A DNA stretch of 64,000 nucleotides from a virus (Duplodnaviria > Caudoviricetes). Position 1 is the first letter of the stretch; every line of letters starts with the position of its first letter. Location: positions 5,113 through 69,112 of IMG/VR virus record IMGVR_UViG_3300044840_000026; one strand, given 5' to 3'. Shown piece by piece: positions 42,065-63,198 of this stretch. A program made the position numbers and the translations under genes. The notes below the pieces were generated by a model. The model did no database searches, was not told the DNA's origin, and saw only the letters and a list, made by a program, of their open reading frames with translations.

Positions 42065-42760
42065 ATGATCAATTACTCACCCGACTTCACTGGATCAGTT
42101 GCAAAAATTTCAGCTGACCTCTTAGCAGAGGCTTCTATAGCTAGAGAGAATGAAGCAGGGAAGCGAGCACGGTTCGTAGATCAGGGTGCAGCAAAGAGCG
42201 CCTCGTACGCAGCCTCAGCGTGGGATAGCGCGACGTTCAACGCTACGGCAGGCTCGATCTCCCAAGCGTTACCGGCATCGCCTGCAAGCGGCGATGAAGT
42301 CGAGTTCTACCTGTCGGCAACGTCGGGAACCAATGTTCTCACCGTTACAGGTACGGGTGGACCGTTCAGCACTACGACCGCAGGACACGGAGTTACGTTC
42401 CGCTGGACGGGCTCGGCGTGGGTAGAGCGGCAAGATCGCAAGACGAAGGCGTCGCTGGATGCGGCCTACCCCCGCATCGGCGGTGATACGTGGCTGAAAC
42501 AGGCAGCACTTGCCCAAGCGTTTCTGTTGACCTCAGTACCACCAACCTATGACGCGACGTTCGGCACCTTGACGGCTTCCAACATCACCTGGCCTGATGA
42601 CACAACCGGCGCGTATGCAACGACCAGTCTTGACAGCAACGGCGCGGTTACGGCGTTCACAGCCACTTATGTCGGCTCAACCACAAAGACGGTGACAGTG
42701 ACTATTCCTCGGAACAGCTCTAGTCAGGTCAACGCTGCAATGACCGCGAGCGTGGCGTAA
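42065..42760 (+). CDS. Small Thr/Ala-rich fibre-like protein
   Basis: ALPASPASGDEVEF motif typical of tail/baseplate fibre modules. Confidence 0.6.
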   Translation: MINYSPDFTGSVAKISADLLAEASIARENEAGKRARFVDQGAAKSASYAASAWDSATFNATAGSISQALPASPASGDEVEFYLSATSGTNVLTVTGTGGPFSTTTAGHGVTFRWTGSAWVERQDRKTKASLDAAYPRIGGDTWLKQAALAQAFLLTSVPPTYDATFGTLTASNITWPDDTTGAYATTSLDSNGAVTAFTATYVGSTTKTVTVTIPRNSSSQVNAAMTASVA

Positions 42761-43986
42761 TGGGATTCCTCGACGTCCCGATACCTATCGTCACAACATC
42801 GCGGCGGCCAACGACGGTCAGATCAGAAGCGGCTTCTCTGGTGTTGACAGACGGAACATGGGGTTACGCAGGCACACACCCGGCTGGTTCGCTCACAGAT
42901 ACCTCTGATTTTGTGCTCGGCGCATCGAGCGCGTATCTCACAACCAATGCTGCTGGGGCCTACGGAGCCATCGACAAAACTGTGACATGGGATGTGTCTG
43001 CGAAAATGGTACGTGTCACCTTCAAGGTGACAGGAATAGCTAACATCACGACGCTCAAGTTGTATCTGGGTGATTCCTCACTGACAAACTATTTCCAAGT
43101 CAGTCTCAATCCCGGCACTGGTCGAACGACACAGCTTATTGTTCGCGATGGAGATTGGGCAACGTTAGATATTTCGAGAGGCGATTTCACGACGGGCGCC
43201 GGTGCCCCGTCGTGGGCATCTATTGCCAAGGTACGGTTCTTCTGTCAGGACAACGCGACCGGCGCAGTGACGTTTCGTGTTAATGCAATCGGCTTGGTGC
43301 CTGATACTGCTGTGTTTCCGAACGGTTGTGTTGTCTTCGCACTCGACGACGCCGACGCGTCGCATTGGACGATCGCCAAGCCCTATATGGATCGATACTC
43401 CTTCCCGGCGACTTGCTTTCCGATTCTTGGCACGCTTGATGGAACAGGCCTACAAACATCGCAGCTCAAGACAGCGCGTGACTATTCAGGTTGGGAAGTC
43501 GGCGGGCATGCATCGACGACCGCGGTCCACAGCGCTGGACTGGCAGGGTTAACGTCAGCAGCGGTCAAAACGGAATTCGAGACCATCAAGAAGTGGATGC
43601 TAGCCAACGGGTTTAATTCTGATGCTTACGCCTGGCCGAATGGTGATAGCGACGGCATCAGTGAGGCAGTTGCAAGAACATACTGGGCCTGCGGCCGAGG
43701 AACAATTAACCAGTACACGCAGGCAAGTTCGGTGCCAAATCCGTACCGCATAACCAGTTTTAATCTCACGTCATTGTCGAGCGGCCAAGCAACAGCGATT
43801 GTTGACAAGGTTAAAACCGGGAAAGCTCTTGGCGTAATCGTTGCTCACAAGATTATCGCATCACCAGTAGGTTTGAATGATGTGTCAACAGCAACGTTCC
43901 AGGCAGTCGTGGATTACTGCGCCGCACAGAGCGTGCCGGTTCTTACGTTGTCTGAAGCATTGAAGCAATTGGGCCGTCGTCCGTAA
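42760..43986 (+). CDS. CE4/NodB polysaccharide deacetylase with N-terminal beta-sandwich
   Basis: VFALDD, GWEVGGHASTTAVH, AYAWPNG, IVAHKI. Confidence 0.85.
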   Translation: MGFLDVPIPIVTTSRRPTTVRSEAASLVLTDGTWGYAGTHPAGSLTDTSDFVLGASSAYLTTNAAGAYGAIDKTVTWDVSAKMVRVTFKVTGIANITTLKLYLGDSSLTNYFQVSLNPGTGRTTQLIVRDGDWATLDISRGDFTTGAGAPSWASIAKVRFFCQDNATGAVTFRVNAIGLVPDTAVFPNGCVVFALDDADASHWTIAKPYMDRYSFPATCFPILGTLDGTGLQTSQLKTARDYSGWEVGGHASTTAVHSAGLAGLTSAAVKTEFETIKKWMLANGFNSDAYAWPNGDSDGISEAVARTYWACGRGTINQYTQASSVPNPYRITSFNLTSLSSGQATAIVDKVKTGKALGVIVAHKIIASPVGLNDVSTATFQAVVDYCAAQSVPVLTLSEALKQLGRRP

Positions 43987-48988: not shown

Positions 48989-49150
48989 GTGAAAAAACGC
49001 TACCGGGTCATTGCTATCGGCCCATCTCAGACAGTCGCCGTCACGCGGACATGGACTCGCAAGGGTGCTCTAAAGAAGATGAGCCATTACCCGCAGCCGA
49101 CGAAGCGAGAGGGCGGCCTATGGGCCTTCCGAATCGAGAAGGCTGCTTAG
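48989..49150 (+). CDS. Small basic protein (53 aa)
   Basis: GGAG RBS, GTG start; MKKRYRVIAIGPSQ... Confidence 0.4.
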   Translation: MKKRYRVIAIGPSQTVAVTRTWTRKGALKKMSHYPQPTKREGGLWAFRIEKAA

Positions 49151-49983
49151 CCCGTATACGTCCACATGCTGCAGTGGTCCATGTAAACGTTTGCGTCTAA
49201 CGAGGGTTGAGAACCAGAAAGCGGATTCTCCGTCTGAGCCATCCAGAACATTGGTTCGGCCGGGTGAACGGAAGTTGACATGACGGGCGTCGTCATGTCA
49301 TCGAGGAAGAACTTGACTCCAGTCGGCGTCCACTCAAGTGCTGAGGTATGCCACGTGGCATACGTAGCTGATCCCGTAGTATAAAACGCCGCGTTGGTCG
49401 ACGGAGACAACGGCTTATGCACAAAGCCACCGATGGTGCTGTTTAAGTTTCCCTCGGGAAAGTCCATCTCATTGGTCCACGCCCAGGTCTTGGGCCACCA
49501 CAGCCAAGCCGTCTTCCACAAGGCAACTTGATCGGCTTTGAAGCGCGTCTCGACACGTCCGTAGAGCATTGCCGACGCTGCAGCTCCAGCCCCGTATGAA
49601 CCGAGATTCGGATACGGATTTGCTCCGACTCGTTTACCGGTGCCGTCGTTGTGGATGAGGCGCATACGCATGCAGTTGCCCGTAGAACCGCTGATGCCAG
49701 ATACGACGCTCATGTTGTTGATGCCGTAGTAGTCGCCTGTGCCGTTTTGCGAACCGTAAGTCGTTAGGTAGGTCTGCGCGCCCCAGTTCTTGTATGAGCC
49801 AAGTCCCTGGGCGTGATCGCCGTTAACGCCGAACATTGAACCCTCGGCAACGGTGCCGGCAGAGAAGTCATCGAAGAAAACAAGATTCCACGGGCCGCCG
49901 ATTCCACCTCCGACACCACCTCCAGAACCTCCAGAGACACCGCCAACCCCGGCCTTTTTATTGACCGAAAGATGAGCGCCCAT
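49147..49983 (-). CDS. GH16-like glycoside hydrolase with Gly linker
   Basis: LVFFDDFS, YGRVETRFK, NEMDFPE (ExDxxE), WHTSALEWTP..VKFFLD. Confidence 0.85.
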   Translation of the reverse strand: MGAHLSVNKKAGVGGVSGGSGGGVGGGIGGPWNLVFFDDFSAGTVAEGSMFGVNGDHAQGLGSYKNWGAQTYLTTYGSQNGTGDYYGINNMSVVSGISGSTGNCMRMRLIHNDGTGKRVGANPYPNLGSYGAGAAASAMLYGRVETRFKADQVALWKTAWLWWPKTWAWTNEMDFPEGNLNSTIGGFVHKPLSPSTNAAFYTTGSATYATWHTSALEWTPTGVKFFLDDMTTPVMSTSVHPAEPMFWMAQTENPLSGSQPSLDANVYMDHCSMWTYTG

Positions 49984-52169
49984 TACGACGTTCCGAAATA
50001 GGCTTTTTGATTACTGCGTATCGCTGCTTGTGCCGTAGCGTCGATGTCAACTAGGAACACAATGGCCTCGGAGATGGACGCGCCGGTAACCGATTGTATT
50101 GCGTTGCCCGTATTGCCGACACCGATCTTGGTGAATGAGAAGGCCCCGACAGATGCGGTCAAGTGTGAATTGACACCGTCGACCCAGGTATCCATGGTGG
50201 TTGCACCGTTGTCGATTTGTGTCATGAGTTGCTGGAGCTGCGAGTAAACGGCACCGCCGGAAGCTGCCAGTGATGAAGCGTTGTGACGTGTAAGCCAAGC
50301 CTGGGTAGGCGTCGCTGAGCCGTTGCGAGCAAAGAGTTCGGCGCCAACGTTGTCTGAGTTGTCGGTGTTGCTGGCTCCCCACACTGTCAAGAACCGCGGC
50401 GCGGCGGTCGTAACCGAATTGGTCATCTTTGCTACTGCGGCGCCTGACACGATCGTTCCCGTGTATGCCGTGAAGGCCGTACATGACATTCCTCGGGCGG
50501 CATCGGGTGAAAATAGGCTAGGGATAGATTTGGTACCCGCTACATCTATTGCCCCGGATGCGTAGATGCGCCACATGTTGGCCTGTGTCGCTTGCACGAG
50601 GTCATGCCCATTCCCGGATTGGTCATACCACTTGCTTATGTAGCCCGTTGTCCCAGCGCAGAACGTAGCGAGAGTGCCTACGTCCAAAGTTCCGCCTGCT
50701 GTAAAACCGATGTCTTGCGGGGTCGAGTCACTTGCTCGAGTGACCTGGATCGCGCTTCCCGCATACGCAGCAGCCAGTTGGCGTAATCCATAAGCGGCGA
50801 ATGCAGTTGGTACGCCAGATGTGTCGAGCAGCAACGGTGCGGCACCTGTATATCCACTGACTTGGTAGCTAACGCTGGTTCCGTTGTTGGCCACGCAGCG
50901 GATGAGTAGGGATGCGTATGCCTTGGCGGTCGAATAAAGCGCATCGGGCTCAACTACTGATGCACCTGATGCAGCGACGATTGAATCCTGGTGAGCTGAG
51001 CCTTGAGTAACGAGCGCCCAACTGCCCACACCTAGCGTTGTGTCGTTAGGCAACGTGAGGACACAGCCGATTGAGTTTGTGAGTTGACGTGACGAGCCCC
51101 ACGGAATATCTATACCTAGAAGGGCAGTAGCGGCCGTGTAGTTGGCTTGGTCGTCGCGGTAGTTCTTGAGAACGTGAGCGCCGAAGTCATTGTCTTTATC
51201 AAGACGAGCCAGGCTTGCAGCTGGGTAATAGGCGCTTGTTGCTAACCAGCTTGTGCCGTCACCAATGAATTCATATGCCGACTTCAACATGGGAAACGTA
51301 GGCGGCGTGGATTCAAAGCTCCCGGTAAGCGTGGGGGGGGTTGTTCCGGCCTTCCACTTCACACCCCATTTTTTGTTCAGCGTTGGTGTTGGTGCTGTGA
51401 TCGCAAAGCCACCACTCGCAGAAGTGGTATCGGCGACTATGTAGTCCCATGCCGCGGCAGTAGCCGGCGCGGTCACGTTGTTGCGCAAGTTCCAGGAGCT
51501 ACCGCCACCGCCGCTGGCAAACGCCACTGAGTTTGTATAGGCCTGTGCCGTTGCCAATGCAGCCGCCGCTGCTCCGGCCGCGTCGAACCCCGATGCCGGC
51601 TGGGTGGCTGCGGAACCTAAACCCAAGTTCGTGCGAGCCGACGCCACGTTGTTCAAGTCAGAAAGGTTGTTGATGGCGAACAACGCTCCAGCCCCGCCGC
51701 TGCCTGCTGCGACAGCATTCGCATAGGCCTGGGCCATGGCGTAAGCACTCGCCGCCGCCCCCGCGTTATCAAACCCACTTGCGGGTTGAGTGGCCGCAGA
51801 ACCAAGGCCGAGGTTGGTGCGCGATGTCGCGACGTTGTTCAGATCAGAGAGGTTGTTGGTTTTGAGAAGCCCAGTGTTTGTGTCGAGGGTGTCGGCGATG
51901 TCTTCTCGCACGTCGATCTTGCGGGCAAGTAGTGCCGACTCGACATAGATCCAGTACGTGCCGGGTGTCGCGTAGATCTCGGCTTCACCCGTGTTGTCGG
52001 TCATCAGCGTCGAACTACCGACGGTCGTGGACTTAGTGCGGTCGGTGTACGTCGTCGCAGATGCGGTAAGAGCTGAGTCGGTCCAGACCGTGAACGATGT
52101 ATTTTTTATGAGTTTCGAGTTCTGGTCAAAAAGGGCATCCGCCCATCGACCTGCATACTGATCCGACAC
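49983..52169 (-). CDS. 728-aa virion fibre with C-terminal ConA/arabinofuranosidase-B-like domain
   Basis: N-terminus paralogous to the 1905-aa protein; duplicated NNLSDLNNVA..RTNLGLGSAATQPASGFD unit; AAYGLRQLAAAYAGSAIQVTRASD..QDIGF...KWYDQSGNG. Confidence 0.75.
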   Translation of the reverse strand: MSDQYAGRWADALFDQNSKLIKNTSFTVWTDSALTASATTYTDRTKSTTVGSSTLMTDNTGEAEIYATPGTYWIYVESALLARKIDVREDIADTLDTNTGLLKTNNLSDLNNVATSRTNLGLGSAATQPASGFDNAGAAASAYAMAQAYANAVAAGSGGAGALFAINNLSDLNNVASARTNLGLGSAATQPASGFDAAGAAAAALATAQAYTNSVAFASGGGGSSWNLRNNVTAPATAAAWDYIVADTTSASGGFAITAPTPTLNKKWGVKWKAGTTPPTLTGSFESTPPTFPMLKSAYEFIGDGTSWLATSAYYPAASLARLDKDNDFGAHVLKNYRDDQANYTAATALLGIDIPWGSSRQLTNSIGCVLTLPNDTTLGVGSWALVTQGSAHQDSIVAASGASVVEPDALYSTAKAYASLLIRCVANNGTSVSYQVSGYTGAAPLLLDTSGVPTAFAAYGLRQLAAAYAGSAIQVTRASDSTPQDIGFTAGGTLDVGTLATFCAGTTGYISKWYDQSGNGHDLVQATQANMWRIYASGAIDVAGTKSIPSLFSPDAARGMSCTAFTAYTGTIVSGAAVAKMTNSVTTAAPRFLTVWGASNTDNSDNVGAELFARNGSATPTQAWLTRHNASSLAASGGAVYSQLQQLMTQIDNGATTMDTWVDGVNSHLTASVGAFSFTKIGVGNTGNAIQSVTGASISEAIVFLVDIDATAQAAIRSNQKAYFGTS

Positions 52170-52219
52170 CAGATCGCCCCTTATTTGGTCGATGCTTCAA
52201 CGAACGTCTGTTAGGTGTT

Positions 52220-52278
52220 CGCGGGCATCCGGCGCCGCTGACGCCCACATTGTAGGCGAAAGTTTCAAGTTCTTTGAT
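52220..52278. promoter_or_regulatory. Divergent fibre/endolysin promoters with 20-nt leader and TTCAAG box
   Basis: Leader on the minus strand at 52220-52239 behind TACAAT (52249-52254); TTCAAGTTCTTTGAT at 52264-52278 before TATATT. Confidence 0.75.
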
Positions 52279-52291
52279 ATATTGCCTGATC

Positions 52292-53185
52292 ATGGGGAAC
52301 CTGACGTATGCCGACGTATCGGAACACCAGCCCAACGCTGATTTCGTCGGCATCCGTAAGCAGAGCGATGTAATCGCAGCTCGGACTGCTTACGGAACCC
52401 GTCTTGATCTCACGATGCCCAGCCGACGAGACAAGATCCGAGCCGCTCAGTTCCAGGTCGTGATCTGGTACATGTTCCTTCGGGCATCCCAGGACGCTCG
52501 GAAACAGGCTGAGGCCACAATTGCCATGATCGGCGATCTGTTGCCCAATGAATTCTTCTGCGTGGATTACGAGAGTGACTCAAGCCACCTTTTGCGCACG
52601 TCGGGCGCCGAGGCGTCATTCGATTTGGCGACAGCCTCCTCGTCCATGCCCACCGTGGATCAGCGCAATCTTGCCGCTCAGACTTTTGAAGATCATGCCA
52701 AGCGCAAGACGCTGATCTACATGAACGCGTCTACCGCGGGTATTTACCCGGACCCCTCAAGACCCCTTTGGGCCGCTGCTTATCAGAAATCGGAACCCTC
52801 GATTAAGCACGTTGCCTGGCAGCATACGAATGCCGGCGGTCCCTGGGCGGGCTGTGGACACTGTGACACGTCAACCTTTCACGGCACCTCTGAGGACTTT
52901 CTCGGAGCTCTCGGGCCAGTCCAACATTCTTCACTGGCCCCTTGTGTCGCCATCGCGGCAACCAAAACAGGTCAGGGCTACTACCAAGTCGGGGCCGATG
53001 GGGGAGTCTTCTGCTACGGCGACGCCCAGTTCTACGGCTCGATGGGCGGCAAGCCACTGCAGGCGCCGGTCGTGGGAATGCAGGTCACGCCATCAGGCGG
53101 GGGTTACTGGCTCGTTAGTGCTGACTACGGCATCTTTGCCTTCGGTGACGCTCCCTTCTTCGGGCACTTCACCCCCAGCCGATGA
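52292..53185 (+). CDS. Endolysin: GH25 muramidase plus C-terminal cell-wall-binding repeats
   Basis: DVSEHQ, VDYES, LWAAAY, AWQHT; repeats GYYQVGADGGVFCYGDAQFYGS and GYWLVSADYGIFAFGDAPFFG. Confidence 0.9.
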   Translation: MGNLTYADVSEHQPNADFVGIRKQSDVIAARTAYGTRLDLTMPSRRDKIRAAQFQVVIWYMFLRASQDARKQAEATIAMIGDLLPNEFFCVDYESDSSHLLRTSGAEASFDLATASSSMPTVDQRNLAAQTFEDHAKRKTLIYMNASTAGIYPDPSRPLWAAAYQKSEPSIKHVAWQHTNAGGPWAGCGHCDTSTFHGTSEDFLGALGPVQHSSLAPCVAIAATKTGQGYYQVGADGGVFCYGDAQFYGSMGGKPLQAPVVGMQVTPSGGGYWLVSADYGIFAFGDAPFFGHFTPSR

Positions 53186-53529
53186 CTCCTCAACGCGTTC
53201 TCATCATTGACGATGATTTGATGACAGCAAAGATCACGTCGCTTTCGCTCGAGCGCCTCGGTCACAACACAACCGTCCGTGAGGACGACTGGGCCAACGC
53301 TGCAGAGGGCGTGAATTGGGATGACTACGACGCCGTAATTGTCGATCGTCATCTCGGCACTTTCGACGGGATGGGAATCCTTGAATGGCTGTGTGAACAT
53401 CAACCGCGTGTAAAACGCATTCTCTTAACGGTGGACTCCTCTACTCCCGATCTTCCTTACGTGGAATTCCGATTCATCAAACCGAGCTCAACCGCGATGC
53501 TTGCCATGGCGTTGGAGTCAGACAGATGA
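53182..53529 (+). CDS. Stand-alone CheY-like response-regulator receiver domain
   Basis: VLIIDDD (D10-D12), VIVD55RHL, LLT83, FIK100P; ATGA overlaps on both sides. Confidence 0.9.
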   Translation: MTPQRVLIIDDDLMTAKITSLSLERLGHNTTVREDDWANAAEGVNWDDYDAVIVDRHLGTFDGMGILEWLCEHQPRVKRILLTVDSSTPDLPYVEFRFIKPSSTAMLAMALESDR

Positions 53530-53978
53530 GCGACATAGGGGCAAACAGACGTATTACCGATGTTCACGTTGCTGAACTCTCGGGCGAAATCAAAACGCTA
53601 AACGTCAAAGTCGATGGCCTTAAAGAAGGCACCGAACGAGGCTTTGTTCACGTCGAGCACTTGATTACCGATCAAGGCAAGACGACAGAACTACGCATGA
53701 CTTCGTTTATGGAAGACGTTCGCCAGCAGATGGGTTTTATGTCGGATGCGATTCGCAGTGTCTCTGATGAACAAAAACGCCAGGGTGATGTTCGTAAGGA
53801 TCTCACCGGGATAGTCGATGAACAAAAGCGTCAAGGCGATGTTCGTCTAGACGTTACGCGACTGGAGAACACAGTTCGCTGGATCAGCCGTACGTCCGTC
53901 GCCGCAATGATCACTGGCGTTACCAGCATCGTCACAGTTCTTTTGCTCCATGCGTTAACCAATCAGGTTTACCCCTGA
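53526..53978 (+). CDS. Coiled-coil protein with C-terminal TM helix (lysis-associated)
   Basis: Internal duplication DEQKRQGDVR x2; C-terminal SVAAMITGVTSIVTVLLLHAL. Confidence 0.75.
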   Translation: MSDIGANRRITDVHVAELSGEIKTLNVKVDGLKEGTERGFVHVEHLITDQGKTTELRMTSFMEDVRQQMGFMSDAIRSVSDEQKRQGDVRKDLTGIVDEQKRQGDVRLDVTRLENTVRWISRTSVAAMITGVTSIVTVLLLHALTNQVYP

Positions 53979-53992
53979 TCCTAGAAAGGGAA

Positions 53993-54259
53993 ATGAAAAT
54001 GCTGCAATTCCTCAAGACATTCGTAAGTGAACTCGCTGCGGCCAACCCGGCGCGTCTTATCGGCACAGTCATCAGCGTCATCTCTGGCGTGTCCGCTTTC
54101 ATCGTGACTCTGCAGCCGGCGCTTTCAAAAGTCAACGGTTGGGGACAGGCTGTGATCGTCATTGCCGCCGCGGTGATTCCGTTCATTCAAGCGCGCTACA
54201 CAACCAAGCTGGTTTCGTTCTCCGTAAAAAAGCGATCCAACGCTAAAGGCGTCAACTAG
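53993..54259 (+). CDS. Holin candidate
   Basis: 88 aa, two TM segments, basic C-tail KKRSNAK; last gene of the lysis cassette. Confidence 0.7.
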   Translation: MKMLQFLKTFVSELAAANPARLIGTVISVISGVSAFIVTLQPALSKVNGWGQAVIVIAAAVIPFIQARYTTKLVSFSVKKRSNAKGVN

Positions 54260-54518: not shown

Positions 54519-54650
54519 TCAATTCTGCTGGTTTCGCAATATGCCACCAGTCCCTACTGTGTGAATCCAAAAGTTGTGGTGCCAGTGAATGTGCAGACCA
54601 CAAACCTCGCAGAGTCGGCCCCACTTGCTCAGCCTCGGTGGCCAAGTCAT
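54519..54650 (-). CDS. Small hypothetical protein (43 aa)
   Basis: TAATG overlap; MTWPPRLSKWGRLCEVCGLH... Confidence 0.4.
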   Translation of the reverse strand: MTWPPRLSKWGRLCEVCGLHIHWHHNFWIHTVGTGGILRNQQN

Positions 54651-57295: not shown

Positions 57296-58207
57296 TCAAA
57301 GTCCTCTCTGTTGTAGATCTTCGTACGCTTCTTTGCGTTTTGCATCGCTGATCTTGGTGTAGCCAGCAATCGATCCCAAACCGCGATGACCAAGTGTCTC
57401 AGCGGTCAATCGCGCGTCGCCCATCGATTCTTGGAGCAATGTGCCGAGGGTGTGACGTAAGCGATGTGGGTGGAAAGGCGGGATGCCAACCCTCATCGAG
57501 AACTGTCGACAAATGTAGTTCGCACCTTGGATTGAGAGTCGGCGAATCTTGTTGTTCTGAGCTGTCGAGAGACCAATGAACAGAGCAGGGGAGTCGTCAG
57601 TCCGATTCTCCAAGTAGTCCTTCATGGCTGCTCGCGCTCGCATCGTGACCTCGACAATCCGTTCTTTGTCGCCTTTACCGATGATCCGTTGACGCTTGGG
57701 TATGTAACGCTCTATGTCGAGGTTTAAGGCTTCCGAGATACGAGCGCCAGTAGACAGCAGAAACAGGACCAGCGCCTTGTCTCGGCGGTCCTTAGCCGTC
57801 TCTCCGGGCTCTTCAAGGTAGGCGAGCACGGCTATGCGAACGTCGTCATCAAGAGGCTTAGGCAGGCGTTCGGGGATCTTAGGTATGTCGATCAGCACGC
57901 CGAGGTCACCCGGTGTCCATTCCTCGCGGGCGGCGAATTTGAGGAACGACCGTAAGGCGATCAGCCGGCGCGCTCGAGTCGCCATCGCCAGAGGTCGGCG
58001 GTTGCCTTTGGGGCCTGTATGAAGTCGCGCTAGATGGCGCTGGTAATCGCGGAGCACCTCTCTGTTGATGTCTTTGACATTCGTGACAGCGGAAAATTCA
58101 ACGAAACGGGAGAGGTCAAAGTCGTATCCTTTAACTGTTCCCTGCGCCGCATGCTTGTCGAGCTCTAGCCATGAGAGGTACTCGTCGATTGCCTGGTTGA
58201 GTTTCAT
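57296..58207 (-). CDS. XerC/D-like tyrosine recombinase (integrase candidate)
   Basis: TGARISE (R), GKGDKER (K), HRLRH, LGH, AGY (Y); SAM-like N-domain. Confidence 0.92.
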   Translation of the reverse strand: MKLNQAIDEYLSWLELDKHAAQGTVKGYDFDLSRFVEFSAVTNVKDINREVLRDYQRHLARLHTGPKGNRRPLAMATRARRLIALRSFLKFAAREEWTPGDLGVLIDIPKIPERLPKPLDDDVRIAVLAYLEEPGETAKDRRDKALVLFLLSTGARISEALNLDIERYIPKRQRIIGKGDKERIVEVTMRARAAMKDYLENRTDDSPALFIGLSTAQNNKIRRLSIQGANYICRQFSMRVGIPPFHPHRLRHTLGTLLQESMGDARLTAETLGHRGLGSIAGYTKISDAKRKEAYEDLQQRGL

Positions 58208-61361: not shown

Positions 61362-61578
61362 GTGGAGGATCTCTCTTGCCCCACATGCCGCAGGGTTGGC
61401 CGCCCGTATCCGCTCCTAAGCATGCAGGGCAAGCACGCTCGAAACCTTGGTAACCGTCGTTGTATCCCTGCTCGTAGTCCGAACTACTGCCGCTTGGTTC
61501 CCAGGTCGAGTCGTGACTTTCACGGCTGTCGTCGACGCCTTTGCGGTAGCCAGCTCGATAACTTCGATCTTGGGTCAC
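61354..61578 (-). CDS. Hypothetical protein
   Basis: SYRAGYRKG...YEQGYNDGY repeats. Confidence 0.55.
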   Translation of the reverse strand: MTQDRSYRAGYRKGVDDSRESHDSTWEPSGSSSDYEQGYNDGYQGFERACPACLGADTGGQPCGMWGKRDPPHE

Positions 61579-62018
61579 TTCTCCCCCTGTGTCGTATCCA
61601 CCGTCGATTCGTCACTGTGACGAATGTCGCGTGTATCGGCCCACTCCCAAAGACCGAGCTTGCCGGTCGCTAGTTGGGGTGTATCAAAACAGATCGGGTT
61701 TGACAACACCCAGTGCCAATGATCGTCAAATGCCCACTTGGAATCGCTGTCGTTGACGCAATCAACAAGCTGCACCGTCCCGATGATGTGGCCGGCGGCG
61801 AAGTTACCCATCCAGGCGAGTGCTCCATTTGCGCTTTCTCCTACGGATAGGGATTCGGACCACTTATTAGTCTTGAACTGTTTTACCGTGATTGAGGCCT
61901 TGGCAACATGGATCGCGATACGGCCGCGGTAGTGGGTTCGCTGCTTCCTGTTTTCGACATCCTTTAGCCCTGTCATGATCAGGTGGGCATATGGTTGTTT
62001 CACGGTGAGAGCTTTCAT
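61575..62018 (-). CDS. ASCH-domain protein
   Basis: MKALTVKQPYAHLIMTGLKDVENR...YRGRIAIH...GKLGLW. Confidence 0.9.
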   Translation of the reverse strand: MKALTVKQPYAHLIMTGLKDVENRKQRTHYRGRIAIHVAKASITVKQFKTNKWSESLSVGESANGALAWMGNFAAGHIIGTVQLVDCVNDSDSKWAFDDHWHWVLSNPICFDTPQLATGKLGLWEWADTRDIRHSDESTVDTTQGEK

Positions 62019-62451
62019 GTGGTTTCTCCCCAAATGTGTCCGCGGTCAAGCGCCTCATCCACCATTGAGCGATCACTAGAAATGCACCATTGCCGCGCCT
62101 CACGCAATACTTGTTTCAGGATGAAACCGGAGGCCACAGTGGCTTTACGGTCACCAGTCCCACCTTCTAGCCGTACAACCCAGCGAGCCATTGTGAAGAC
62201 GGGGTGAGCGGTTATCGTTACCCATGCGCCATCTACATAGCCATTGAGACGTTCAGCCTCCCAAAGTAACCGTTCGGCTTTCACGGCTTCTCCCCTGGCT
62301 TCCACAATTCGTCTGCGTGATCGCCCAACTCTCGCTTTGTTCCATCGTGATACTCATCACACGCACCGCAGAACTTGAATCGAATGTCGTTCGGGTTGTA
62401 GCTAGTTCGTTCGCATTTGGGACAAGTGATATTCGGCTGGTCCGTGCTCAC
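62015..62451 (-). CDS. Hypothetical Zn-ribbon protein; probable 1-nt deletion at ~62305
   Basis: CPKCERTSYNPND..FKFCGAC; one added G joins ...HADEL to VEARGEAVKAERL. Confidence 0.5.
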
Positions 62452-62746
62452 GGGTTCTCCAATCTGAACACCAGTAATGTGCTGTAATTGCGCCTTGCGT
62501 GGACTTGCCTTACTCCTGCTGGTTGTGGCCGATAGCTGGAGATGTGCAACATATCGACTAGCCGACAACCGAGCGATTCAGCATGGTCAGCAATCATGCG
62601 GATTTGCCAGTGGACTTTGCCTGACTCTTCCAGTCCTTATCGAGGTACCCGAGACGCGCTACGTCCGCGATGAGTTCGGCGTTGTTTAGCCAGGCACCGT
62701 TTGCCATGACGGCAGTTGGTGTGTCTATCAAGGCAATCTCGCTCAT
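62448..62746 (-). pseudogene. Internally deleted methyltransferase-like gene
   Basis: N-terminus WLNNAELIADVARLGYLDKDW joined out of frame at ~62630 to SGKVHWQ...LVDMLH...RPQP...QVHARRNYSTLLVF; family assignment is from memory. Confidence 0.55.
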
Positions 62747-63198
62747 GGAGAGTGCTCCCCTTGCAGAACATAGACAGTCAGGTCAATTGAGCTTTGAGTA
62801 GCCAGTTTTTGTATGGCCGGCCCGACTTCACTCCATTGCAGCCCCCCGATTCCGCACCCAATACGTGGCATGGCGATGCTCTTCATGCCGACTGATTCTG
62901 CGTCCTTCAACATTGCTTTCACGGCTATTTCGATCCACTCCAATTGAGCGTCCGGGCCAGGAAGTTGTTGAGTGGCAAGGTTGTAGATCGCGGGTTTGTC
63001 AGAGCGCCGCAGGTAGTAGCTGCCGGGATTCAGCAGGCGTGCCTCGCACAGCTCCGCATACCTGTCCTTCATCTTTGGATACCGCCTAGCAAACTCGGCG
63101 GCAATGCCGCCACCCATTGAGCCTTGGCAGTTGACGCCATGAGCCAGCGCGTCAACATCAGCGTCAAACAGGTTGCCTACGACCTCGGAATAGCTCAC
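62743..63198 (-). CDS. Macrodomain (DarG/Poa1-like ADP-ribosylhydrolase)
   Basis: GNLFD, AHGVNCQGSMGGGIAAEF, IYNLATQ, SIAMPRIGCGIGGLQW. Confidence 0.9.
   Translation of the reverse strand: MSYSEVVGNLFDADVDALAHGVNCQGSMGGGIAAEFARRYPKMKDRYAELCEARLLNPGSYYLRRSDKPAIYNLATQQLPGPDAQLEWIEIAVKAMLKDAESVGMKSIAMPRIGCGIGGLQWSEVGPAIQKLATQSSIDLTVYVLQGEHSP

Follow-up and report, generated by a model that had tools for sequence, protein, structure and literature searches.

A stand-alone receiver domain coupled to a tail-anchored membrane protein in the lysis operon of an uncultured, probable actinophage

What is a bacterial signalling domain doing among the lysis genes of a phage? The question is raised by four genes on the plus strand (positions 52292-54259) of a 64,000-nucleotide (nt) stretch of viral DNA, hereafter the window, which comprises bases 5113-69112 of the linear, approximately 86% complete, 69,112-bp IMG/VR virus record IMGVR_UViG_3300044840_000026. 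The genes encode, in this order, a GH25 endolysin, a stand-alone receiver domain (REC), a coiled-coil protein with a transmembrane (TM) helix and a holin candidate (Table 1); together they are the late lysis operon of the phage. A preliminary description of this DNA had placed four open reading frames (ORFs) here and had linked the first three by ATGA overlaps. On re-reading of the sequence the four ORFs lie at the coordinates claimed, and both overlaps are located: the endolysin stop and the REC start share ATGA at 53182-53185, and the REC stop and the membrane-protein start share ATGA at 53526-53529. The first three genes are translationally coupled, and their products are therefore made together. 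The holin candidate begins 14 nt after the membrane-protein gene, with the ribosome-binding site AAAGGGA ahead of it. The preliminary description had further proposed that host phosphorylation status gates lysis through the REC and its membrane neighbor, and had added that no characterized system of this type was known to it. On the latter point our literature search agrees, as it found neither a description nor a test of a receiver in a lysis cassette.

The alignments and the structural model of the REC show a receiver whose catalytic set is complete and whose output face is atypical. Its sequence scores 42.3 bits with the CheY-like Pfam family PF00072, for which the cut-off is 30.2. The catalytic positions enumerated in the preliminary description (D10-D12, D55, T83, and K100-P101) are all present when counted in the translation, and D55 aligns with the phospho-Asp column of solved receivers, among them 3rqi, which was crystallized with phospho-aspartate. 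The protein is a single domain of 115 amino acids (aa) and lacks an output domain, as had been said. Searched exhaustively with phmmer, a set of 1.84 billion representatives yielded 793 proteins at E ≤ 0.001, and the full-length matches are stand-alone proteins of about 111-132 aa that are 25-38% identical to the window REC. Across an alignment of 22 of these relatives D11, D55, G63, and K100 are invariant, while D50, P75, T83, and P101 are at least 90% conserved; a tryptophan at position 46 is common. The position three residues before K100, which is the aromatic switch site in CheY, is occupied by R97 and is not conserved among the relatives. The retention of the complete catalytic set at 25-38% identity argues for real phosphoryl chemistry.

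The output face is where this REC departs from the ordinary. A family profile aligns with solved receivers from end to end (E 3e-19), and an AlphaFold2 model built on the alignment of relatives is of high confidence (predicted local distance difference test, pLDDT, 94.7; predicted template-modelling score, pTM, 0.88). The model shows, with confidence, five strands and helices 1, 3, and 5; helix 2 is shrunk to two short turns, and a loop (residues 84-95) takes the place of helix 4. The core receiver fold is thus found in the model, and the complete (beta-alpha)5 layout is not. Its best Foldseek matches are ordinary receivers (PhoP, VicR, PhoB, and PorX; template-modelling scores of 0.75-0.82). 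The usual Thr-to-Lys spacing is about 22 residues in CheY, PhoB, and Spo0F. From T83 to K100 the window REC has 17, and profile alignment to NtrC1 places a 4-residue deletion at this point. By sequence the REC belongs to a small, rare, and hitherto undescribed subgroup of receivers of about 115 aa that lack helix 4.

Two known kinds of unusual receiver were considered as homes for this protein, and both were rejected. FATGUY-type receivers (Sma0114, SdrG) have helix 4 replaced by a loop, carry a PFxFATGY motif and are linked to HWE/HisKA2 kinases. The window REC shares with them the conversion of the fourth helix to a loop, but it has no link to HWE/HisKA2 kinases and lacks PFxFATGY; the residues around T83 read RILLTVDSS, where its own family consensus is MLTAD. 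The cREC domain of jumbo phages is a divergent receiver linked to genes that process NAD+ and ADP-ribose (Iyer et al. 2021, PMC7824862), and it resembles the window REC as a phage-encoded receiver fold outside two-component operons. An NAD-linked reading of this kind was set aside, since the Pfam match of the window REC is canonical, above the cut-off, and its neighbors are lysis genes.

If D55 is a phosphorylation site, what would phosphorylate it? The window had been described as free of histidine kinases, and the absence holds for the whole 69,112-bp record: profile searches with HATPase_c, HisKA, HisKA_3, and Hpt gave no match at E ≤ 0.1 in this record of about 86% completeness, and the control genomes were positive. 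The phosphoryl donor must therefore come from the host or be encoded on the missing approximately 14% of the genome.

The candidate partner of the REC is the product of the next gene. This 150-aa protein has one hydrophobic segment, at residues 123-145 (hydropathy maximum 2.0), which makes a single C-terminal TM helix. Arg117 and Arg122 precede the helix, beyond which there is no positive residue; under the positive-inside rule the N-terminal soluble part of about 120 residues, partly helical or coiled-coil, is predicted to be cytoplasmic. The coiled coil and the REC would thereby share a compartment, the one within reach of the other. The same considerations, a C-terminal TM helix and a coiled coil assigned to the cytoplasm, led us to reject a spanin identity for the protein. 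Its matches to PHROG families 13142 and 26233, both of unknown function, have E values of about 1e-5, and its feature neighbors in the Atlas are viral coiled-coil proteins. A single-sequence AlphaFold2 prediction is of low confidence (pLDDT 52), with helices at 61-102 and 110-148. The protein bears some likeness to XhlA of PBSX-type prophages, which is likewise small, with a soluble helical N-terminus and a C-terminal TM helix, and is encoded beside a holin and a wall hydrolase. Against the XhlA model (PF10779), the window protein scores 16.6 bits, below the cut-off of 34.7, and only the 27 residues proximal to the TM helix match. The XhlA-XhlB-XlyA cassette of Bacillus prophages has no receiver, whereas the window cassette has one.

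The preliminary description had pointed to a duplicated decapeptide, DEQKRQGDVR, in the membrane protein, and it is indeed present twice, at residues 81-90 and 98-107. The two 30-nt copies differ at four positions; all four differences are synonymous and none is non-synonymous, and the flanking sequences are not similar. The chance that four random substitutions would all be synonymous is about 0.0016. Because every DNA difference is silent, the comparison points to purifying selection on both copies at the level of the peptide. Paired decapeptides of this kind would fit a putative bivalent binding site.

The genes on either side of this pair identify the setting. The endolysin matches Pfam PF01183 at 34.8 bits (cut-off 27) over profile positions 2-175 of 180, and it also matches the PHROG endolysin families 291, 6745, and 3084. 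It has no signal peptide, no signal-arrest-release (SAR) segment and no hydrophobic N-terminus, and with a maximum 19-residue hydropathy of 1.19 it is predicted to be cytoplasmic. Its C-terminal 80 residues (window 52900-53185) hold two repeats, GYYQVGADGGVFCYGDAQFYG and GYWLVSADYGIFAFGDAPFFG, of the pattern GYY/GYW...DGG.F.(Y/F)GDA.F(Y/F)G, for which Pfam has no model. The repeat recurs in thousands of proteins of the CHAP, L,D-transpeptidase, deacetylase, amidase, and chitinase kinds, many of which are named for Acidimicrobiia or Acidimicrobiales (from metagenome-assembled genomes) and also for Actinoplanes. It is likely a wall-binding module, and as such an indicator of the host. The terminase is about 47-50% identical to that of the Streptomyces phages Yara, Dryad, and Wentworth, whose genomes are of about 69 kb. 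On account of this terminase kinship and of the frequency of the endolysin repeats in Acidimicrobiia proteins, the phage is probably an uncultured, temperate, siphovirus-like actinophage, and its host probably a monoderm actinobacterium of the Acidimicrobiia type. That it is temperate follows from the tyrosine integrase (Table 1).

The last gene of the operon is called a holin candidate from its position and topology, not from homology. Its product has a basic C-terminus and an excess of positive residues (10 Lys and Arg, as against 1 Asp or Glu), and its match to PHROG holin family 3428 is weak (E 0.071). The protein starts Met-Lys-Met, with ATG codons at 53993 and 53999 (window 53993-54001). 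In phage lambda, the S107/S105 dual-start motif yields an antiholin and a holin. The Met-Lys-Met start has the same form, an analogy which suggests that a conventional dual-start control of timing is also present in this operon.

Does the arrangement stand alone? Three cultured Alteromonas phages of different morphotypes, V22, R9Y3, and R8W, each have a REC gene coupled by a 4-nt overlap to a gene for a single-pass membrane protein with a helical domain. The regions examined are MN877442 (24959-27038), OM732337 (2127-3671) and MW043865 (7920-9286). In the myovirus V22, ORF28 is an amidase, in ORF29 a hydrophobic N-terminus leads into KKK and then a helical domain, and ORF30 is a 149-aa REC; ORF31, which is spanin-like with an N-terminal TM helix and a coiled coil, and ORF32, with two TM helices, complete the group, and ORF28-32 follow the tail-fibre genes. 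The siphovirus R9Y3 has g13, with an N-terminal TM helix and a helical domain, the REC g12 and the lysozyme g11, with 4-nt overlaps throughout. In the podovirus R8W the class II holin gp46 is accompanied by gp47 (N-terminal TM helix and helical domain), the REC gp48, and gp49. The pairs thus adjoin an endolysin or a holin, and the helical domain of the membrane protein is predicted to be cytoplasmic in all three. The three pairs are homologous to one another, and the partners share a C-terminal motif resembling L..L.M.L.NQR. Their record annotations read only hypothetical protein, hybrid kinase or PhoB, and R8W gp48 was interpreted by its authors as a PhoB-like auxiliary metabolic gene (PMC8228385).

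The correspondence with the window is one of architecture. Here, as there, the gene for a stand-alone REC overlaps by 4 nt that of a membrane protein which crosses the membrane once and has a predicted cytoplasmic helical domain; the two lie beside lysis genes and after the tail-fibre genes. The Alteromonas-phage RECs, however, are longer, at about 150 aa, and they end in a helical tail and have a helix-4 region of full length, whereas the window REC has 115 aa and no helix 4. Their partner lies upstream and carries its TM helix at the N-terminus, while that of the window lies downstream and is tail-anchored, and their hosts are Gram-negative, in contrast to the probably monoderm actinobacterial host of the window phage. 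No similarity was found by BLASTP between the window REC and V22 ORF30 (E 9.1) or between the window membrane protein and V22 ORF29 (E 22), and for this reason the likeness is either convergent or very ancient. The arrangement in the window counts as a separate, independent occurrence of this architecture, and the host of its phage is probably Gram-positive. A pair of another make was seen in the Burkholderia phage vB_E427 (PQ789820, 2501-4581), in which a 229-aa protein with an N-terminal REC, of different REC architecture, is encoded just ahead of a hypothetical protein of 464 aa, the two genes overlapping by 4 nt; this pair comes directly after a very large, structural-looking gene. The module of a receiver and a membrane partner within a holin-endolysin cassette is uncharacterized as a system, and it has unrecognized examples in public phage genomes.

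Receivers that consist of nothing else are well known to act through protein contact, as CheY does on FliM, and as DivK and Spo0F do. A membrane protein may be the target: EpsW is described as a single-domain receiver that acts on a phosphoglycosyl transferase (PMC12802240). These four proteins are like the window REC in comprising only a REC with a full active site, and their output is by protein binding, the mode we propose for the window REC. They differ from it as host-encoded receivers with a known kinase that keep helix 4 and the switch residues, whereas the window REC is phage-encoded, orphan and without helix 4, and its gene belongs to a lysis operon.

The reading that we favor, tentatively and short of calling it probable, is that a host donor phosphorylates the REC, and that the REC binds its membrane partner and modulates the triggering of the holin; the phosphorylation, the binding and the effect on lysis are all things that we infer. 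D55 would be phosphorylated by a host histidine kinase or by acetyl phosphate. The state of phosphorylation would then set the binding of the REC to the cytoplasmic coiled coil, possibly at both decapeptides. The membrane protein would be a holin accessory, similar to XhlA or to an antiholin, and the moment of holin triggering would be set by the phospho-signalling or energy state of the host, atop the dual-start control. We prefer this reading because of the gene order and ATGA overlaps, the canonical REC, the absence of a kinase, the topology of the partner, the selection on its repeat, the recurrence in Alteromonas phages and the precedent of EpsW. The operon arrangement suggests host phospho-signalling that feeds into the timing of host bursting. 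As an interpretation, then, the proposal of the preliminary description stands in part: the REC is intact and orphan, and translational coupling links its gene to those of the endolysin and of a membrane protein with a predicted cytoplasmic coiled coil, but the search for synteny in other phages gave a divided result.

Several points weigh against a role in holin triggering. The loss of helix 4 takes away the usual output surface of a receiver. Streptomyces phage Yara, which stands for the closest cultured lineage as judged by terminase, lacks a REC. For the closest relative of the endolysin, 73% identical and on a 4.9-kb contig, a search of 15 billion proteins gave no accompanying REC that is at least 50% identical. 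The further searches for relatives had the following outcomes. Indirect comparison found no contigs on which relatives of the REC and of the endolysin occur together. Among cultured phages neither the cassette DNA nor the REC has relatives by blastn and tblastn, even at E 5; a word-based protein search with the REC and with the membrane protein returned nothing beyond the proteins themselves; and in IMG/VR no relatives turned up for the REC, the endolysin, the membrane protein, the terminase or one further member of the REC family, so that no homolog of the membrane protein was detected by either route. A candidate locus from the IMG/VR scan proved to be a chance motif match within an unrelated gene. 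A degenerate DNA pattern expected to match most members of the REC family had no match at all in IMG/VR. The same pattern had two matches in a metagenome collection and one in a genome collection; all three are ordinary REC-kinase hybrids and not family members. Scans with NCBIfam and PADLOC gave nothing specific. The members of the family are known from metagenomes, as singletons; most lie on contigs of 1-6 kb and a few on contigs of 20-42 kb. None is in IMG/VR, although one is on a 42-kb contig, and the relatives may therefore be bacterial genes, which also weighs against the reading. Unrelated accessory genes, moreover, are known to settle in lysis cassettes. The preliminary description had looked to synteny in other phages, and the outcome is divided: Yara is without a REC, and the lysis regions of three Alteromonas phages hold an analogous, non-homologous pair of REC and membrane protein. 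With no REC in Yara, none accompanying the closest endolysin and no shared contigs, the REC looks like a rare acquisition within its own phage lineage.

How else might the operon be explained? The REC could be a phosphate sink or decoy, made in bulk late in infection to drain phosphoryl groups from one or more host histidine kinases (of envelope stress, for example) and so dampen the response of the host to the attack on its wall, without direct action on the holin. Sink-type CheY proteins are established, and a complete active site with neither an output domain nor a phage kinase is what a sink would have; a protein that only accepts phosphate could also dispense with helix 4, where the effector face usually lies. 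We consider this unlikely, as it leaves unexplained both the tight coupling to a membrane-anchored partner and the constant membrane partner of the analogous phage RECs, and no host kinase can be named as its target. Comparably improbable, in our estimate, is that REC and membrane protein form a moron or accessory pair unrelated to lysis, which would serve superinfection exclusion, envelope remodelling or lysogenic conversion from a permissive, late-expressed site. The phage is temperate, and relatives of the pair are absent from the nearest known phages. The GC content at third codon positions points the same way, being 0.59 for the REC and 0.52 for the membrane protein, below the 0.61-0.68 of the neighboring genes; this indication is weak, as the genes are short. 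The ATGA overlaps on both sides, however, argue for long residence and co-expression and not for recent insertion, and three further phage lineages show the same placement. Least likely of all is a non-phosphorylated adaptor, a pseudo-receiver whose fold would help the membrane protein or the endolysin as a chaperone or scaffold, with an acidic pocket that only binds metal: an atypical architecture with no helix 4, a vestigial helix 2 and a non-aromatic R97 would accord with it, but pseudo-receivers usually lose at least one catalytic position, whereas here all five are kept across relatives 25-38% identical, which is the signature of selection for phosphoryl chemistry.

Modulation of holin triggering by a phosphorylated REC keeps our preference. 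A broader version of it can be stated, in which phages of unrelated lineages and hosts, Gram-positive as well as Gram-negative, have repeatedly recruited an orphan receiver and a membrane helical partner as an unrecognized layer of the lysis clock, with a host kinase or acetyl phosphate gating the holin and with the window pair having evolved independently. The association of receivers with lysis genes is real and recurrent; the broader version as a whole we regard as doubtful.

The surroundings of the operon are those of a phage genome, and the record encodes a portal, a scaffold protein, fibres, and a tyrosine integrase, among others. The lysis block is a plus-strand island between the minus-strand fibre genes upstream and minus-strand early and lysogeny genes that begin at 54650. 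The operon promoter is presumed, from the gene layout, to lie in the divergent intergenic region; a consensus scan of the plus strand of that region found no sigma-70-like site. Several tail proteins of this phage are apparently glycan-degrading, the 278-aa GH16-like protein and the 728-aa fibre, which has an arabinofuranosidase-B-like catalytic domain (PF09206, E 8.5e-15), being examples. A 408-aa protein encoded after the gene for a 1905-aa fibre has a weak match, just below the cut-off, to polysaccharide deacetylase (PF01522, E 2.9e-4), and may be another envelope-acting virion or late protein.

Table 1. Position and strand of the lysis-operon features and of genes around them in the window.
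Feature	Position	Strand	Remarks
408-aa protein	42760-43986	+
728-aa fibre and 278-aa GH16-like protein (two genes)	49147-52169	-	Upstream of the operon
Divergent intergenic region, fibre gene (-) versus lysis operon (+)	52170-52291		Presumed promoter site
GH25 muramidase (endolysin)	52292-53185	+	Alternative TTG start at 52274
Stand-alone 115-aa receiver domain (REC)	53182-53529	+	PF00072
150-aa tail-anchored coiled-coil membrane protein	53526-53978	+	Candidate REC partner
Two 30-nt copies encoding DEQKRQGDVR	53766-53795, 53817-53846	+	In frame; 51 nt (17 residues) apart
88-aa holin candidate	53993-54259	+	Two TM helices, at about 20-40 and 47-71
Tyrosine integrase	57296-58207	-	Block downstream of the lysis operon
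ASCH-domain protein	61575-62033	-	Block downstream of the lysis operon
Macro-domain protein	62743-63198	-	Block downstream of the lysis operon

The time of lysis is a central trait of phage fitness, and it is explained at present by the kinetics of holins and antiholins, with few known inputs from host physiology. The receiver family that lacks helix 4 is in itself a compact new subtype of the receiver fold. If the REC does act on the holin through its membrane partner, this cassette of four genes and 2 kb would provide a direct route from the phospho-signalling or energy status of the host to the time of its lysis, and would give a new use to the most common signalling domain of bacteria.

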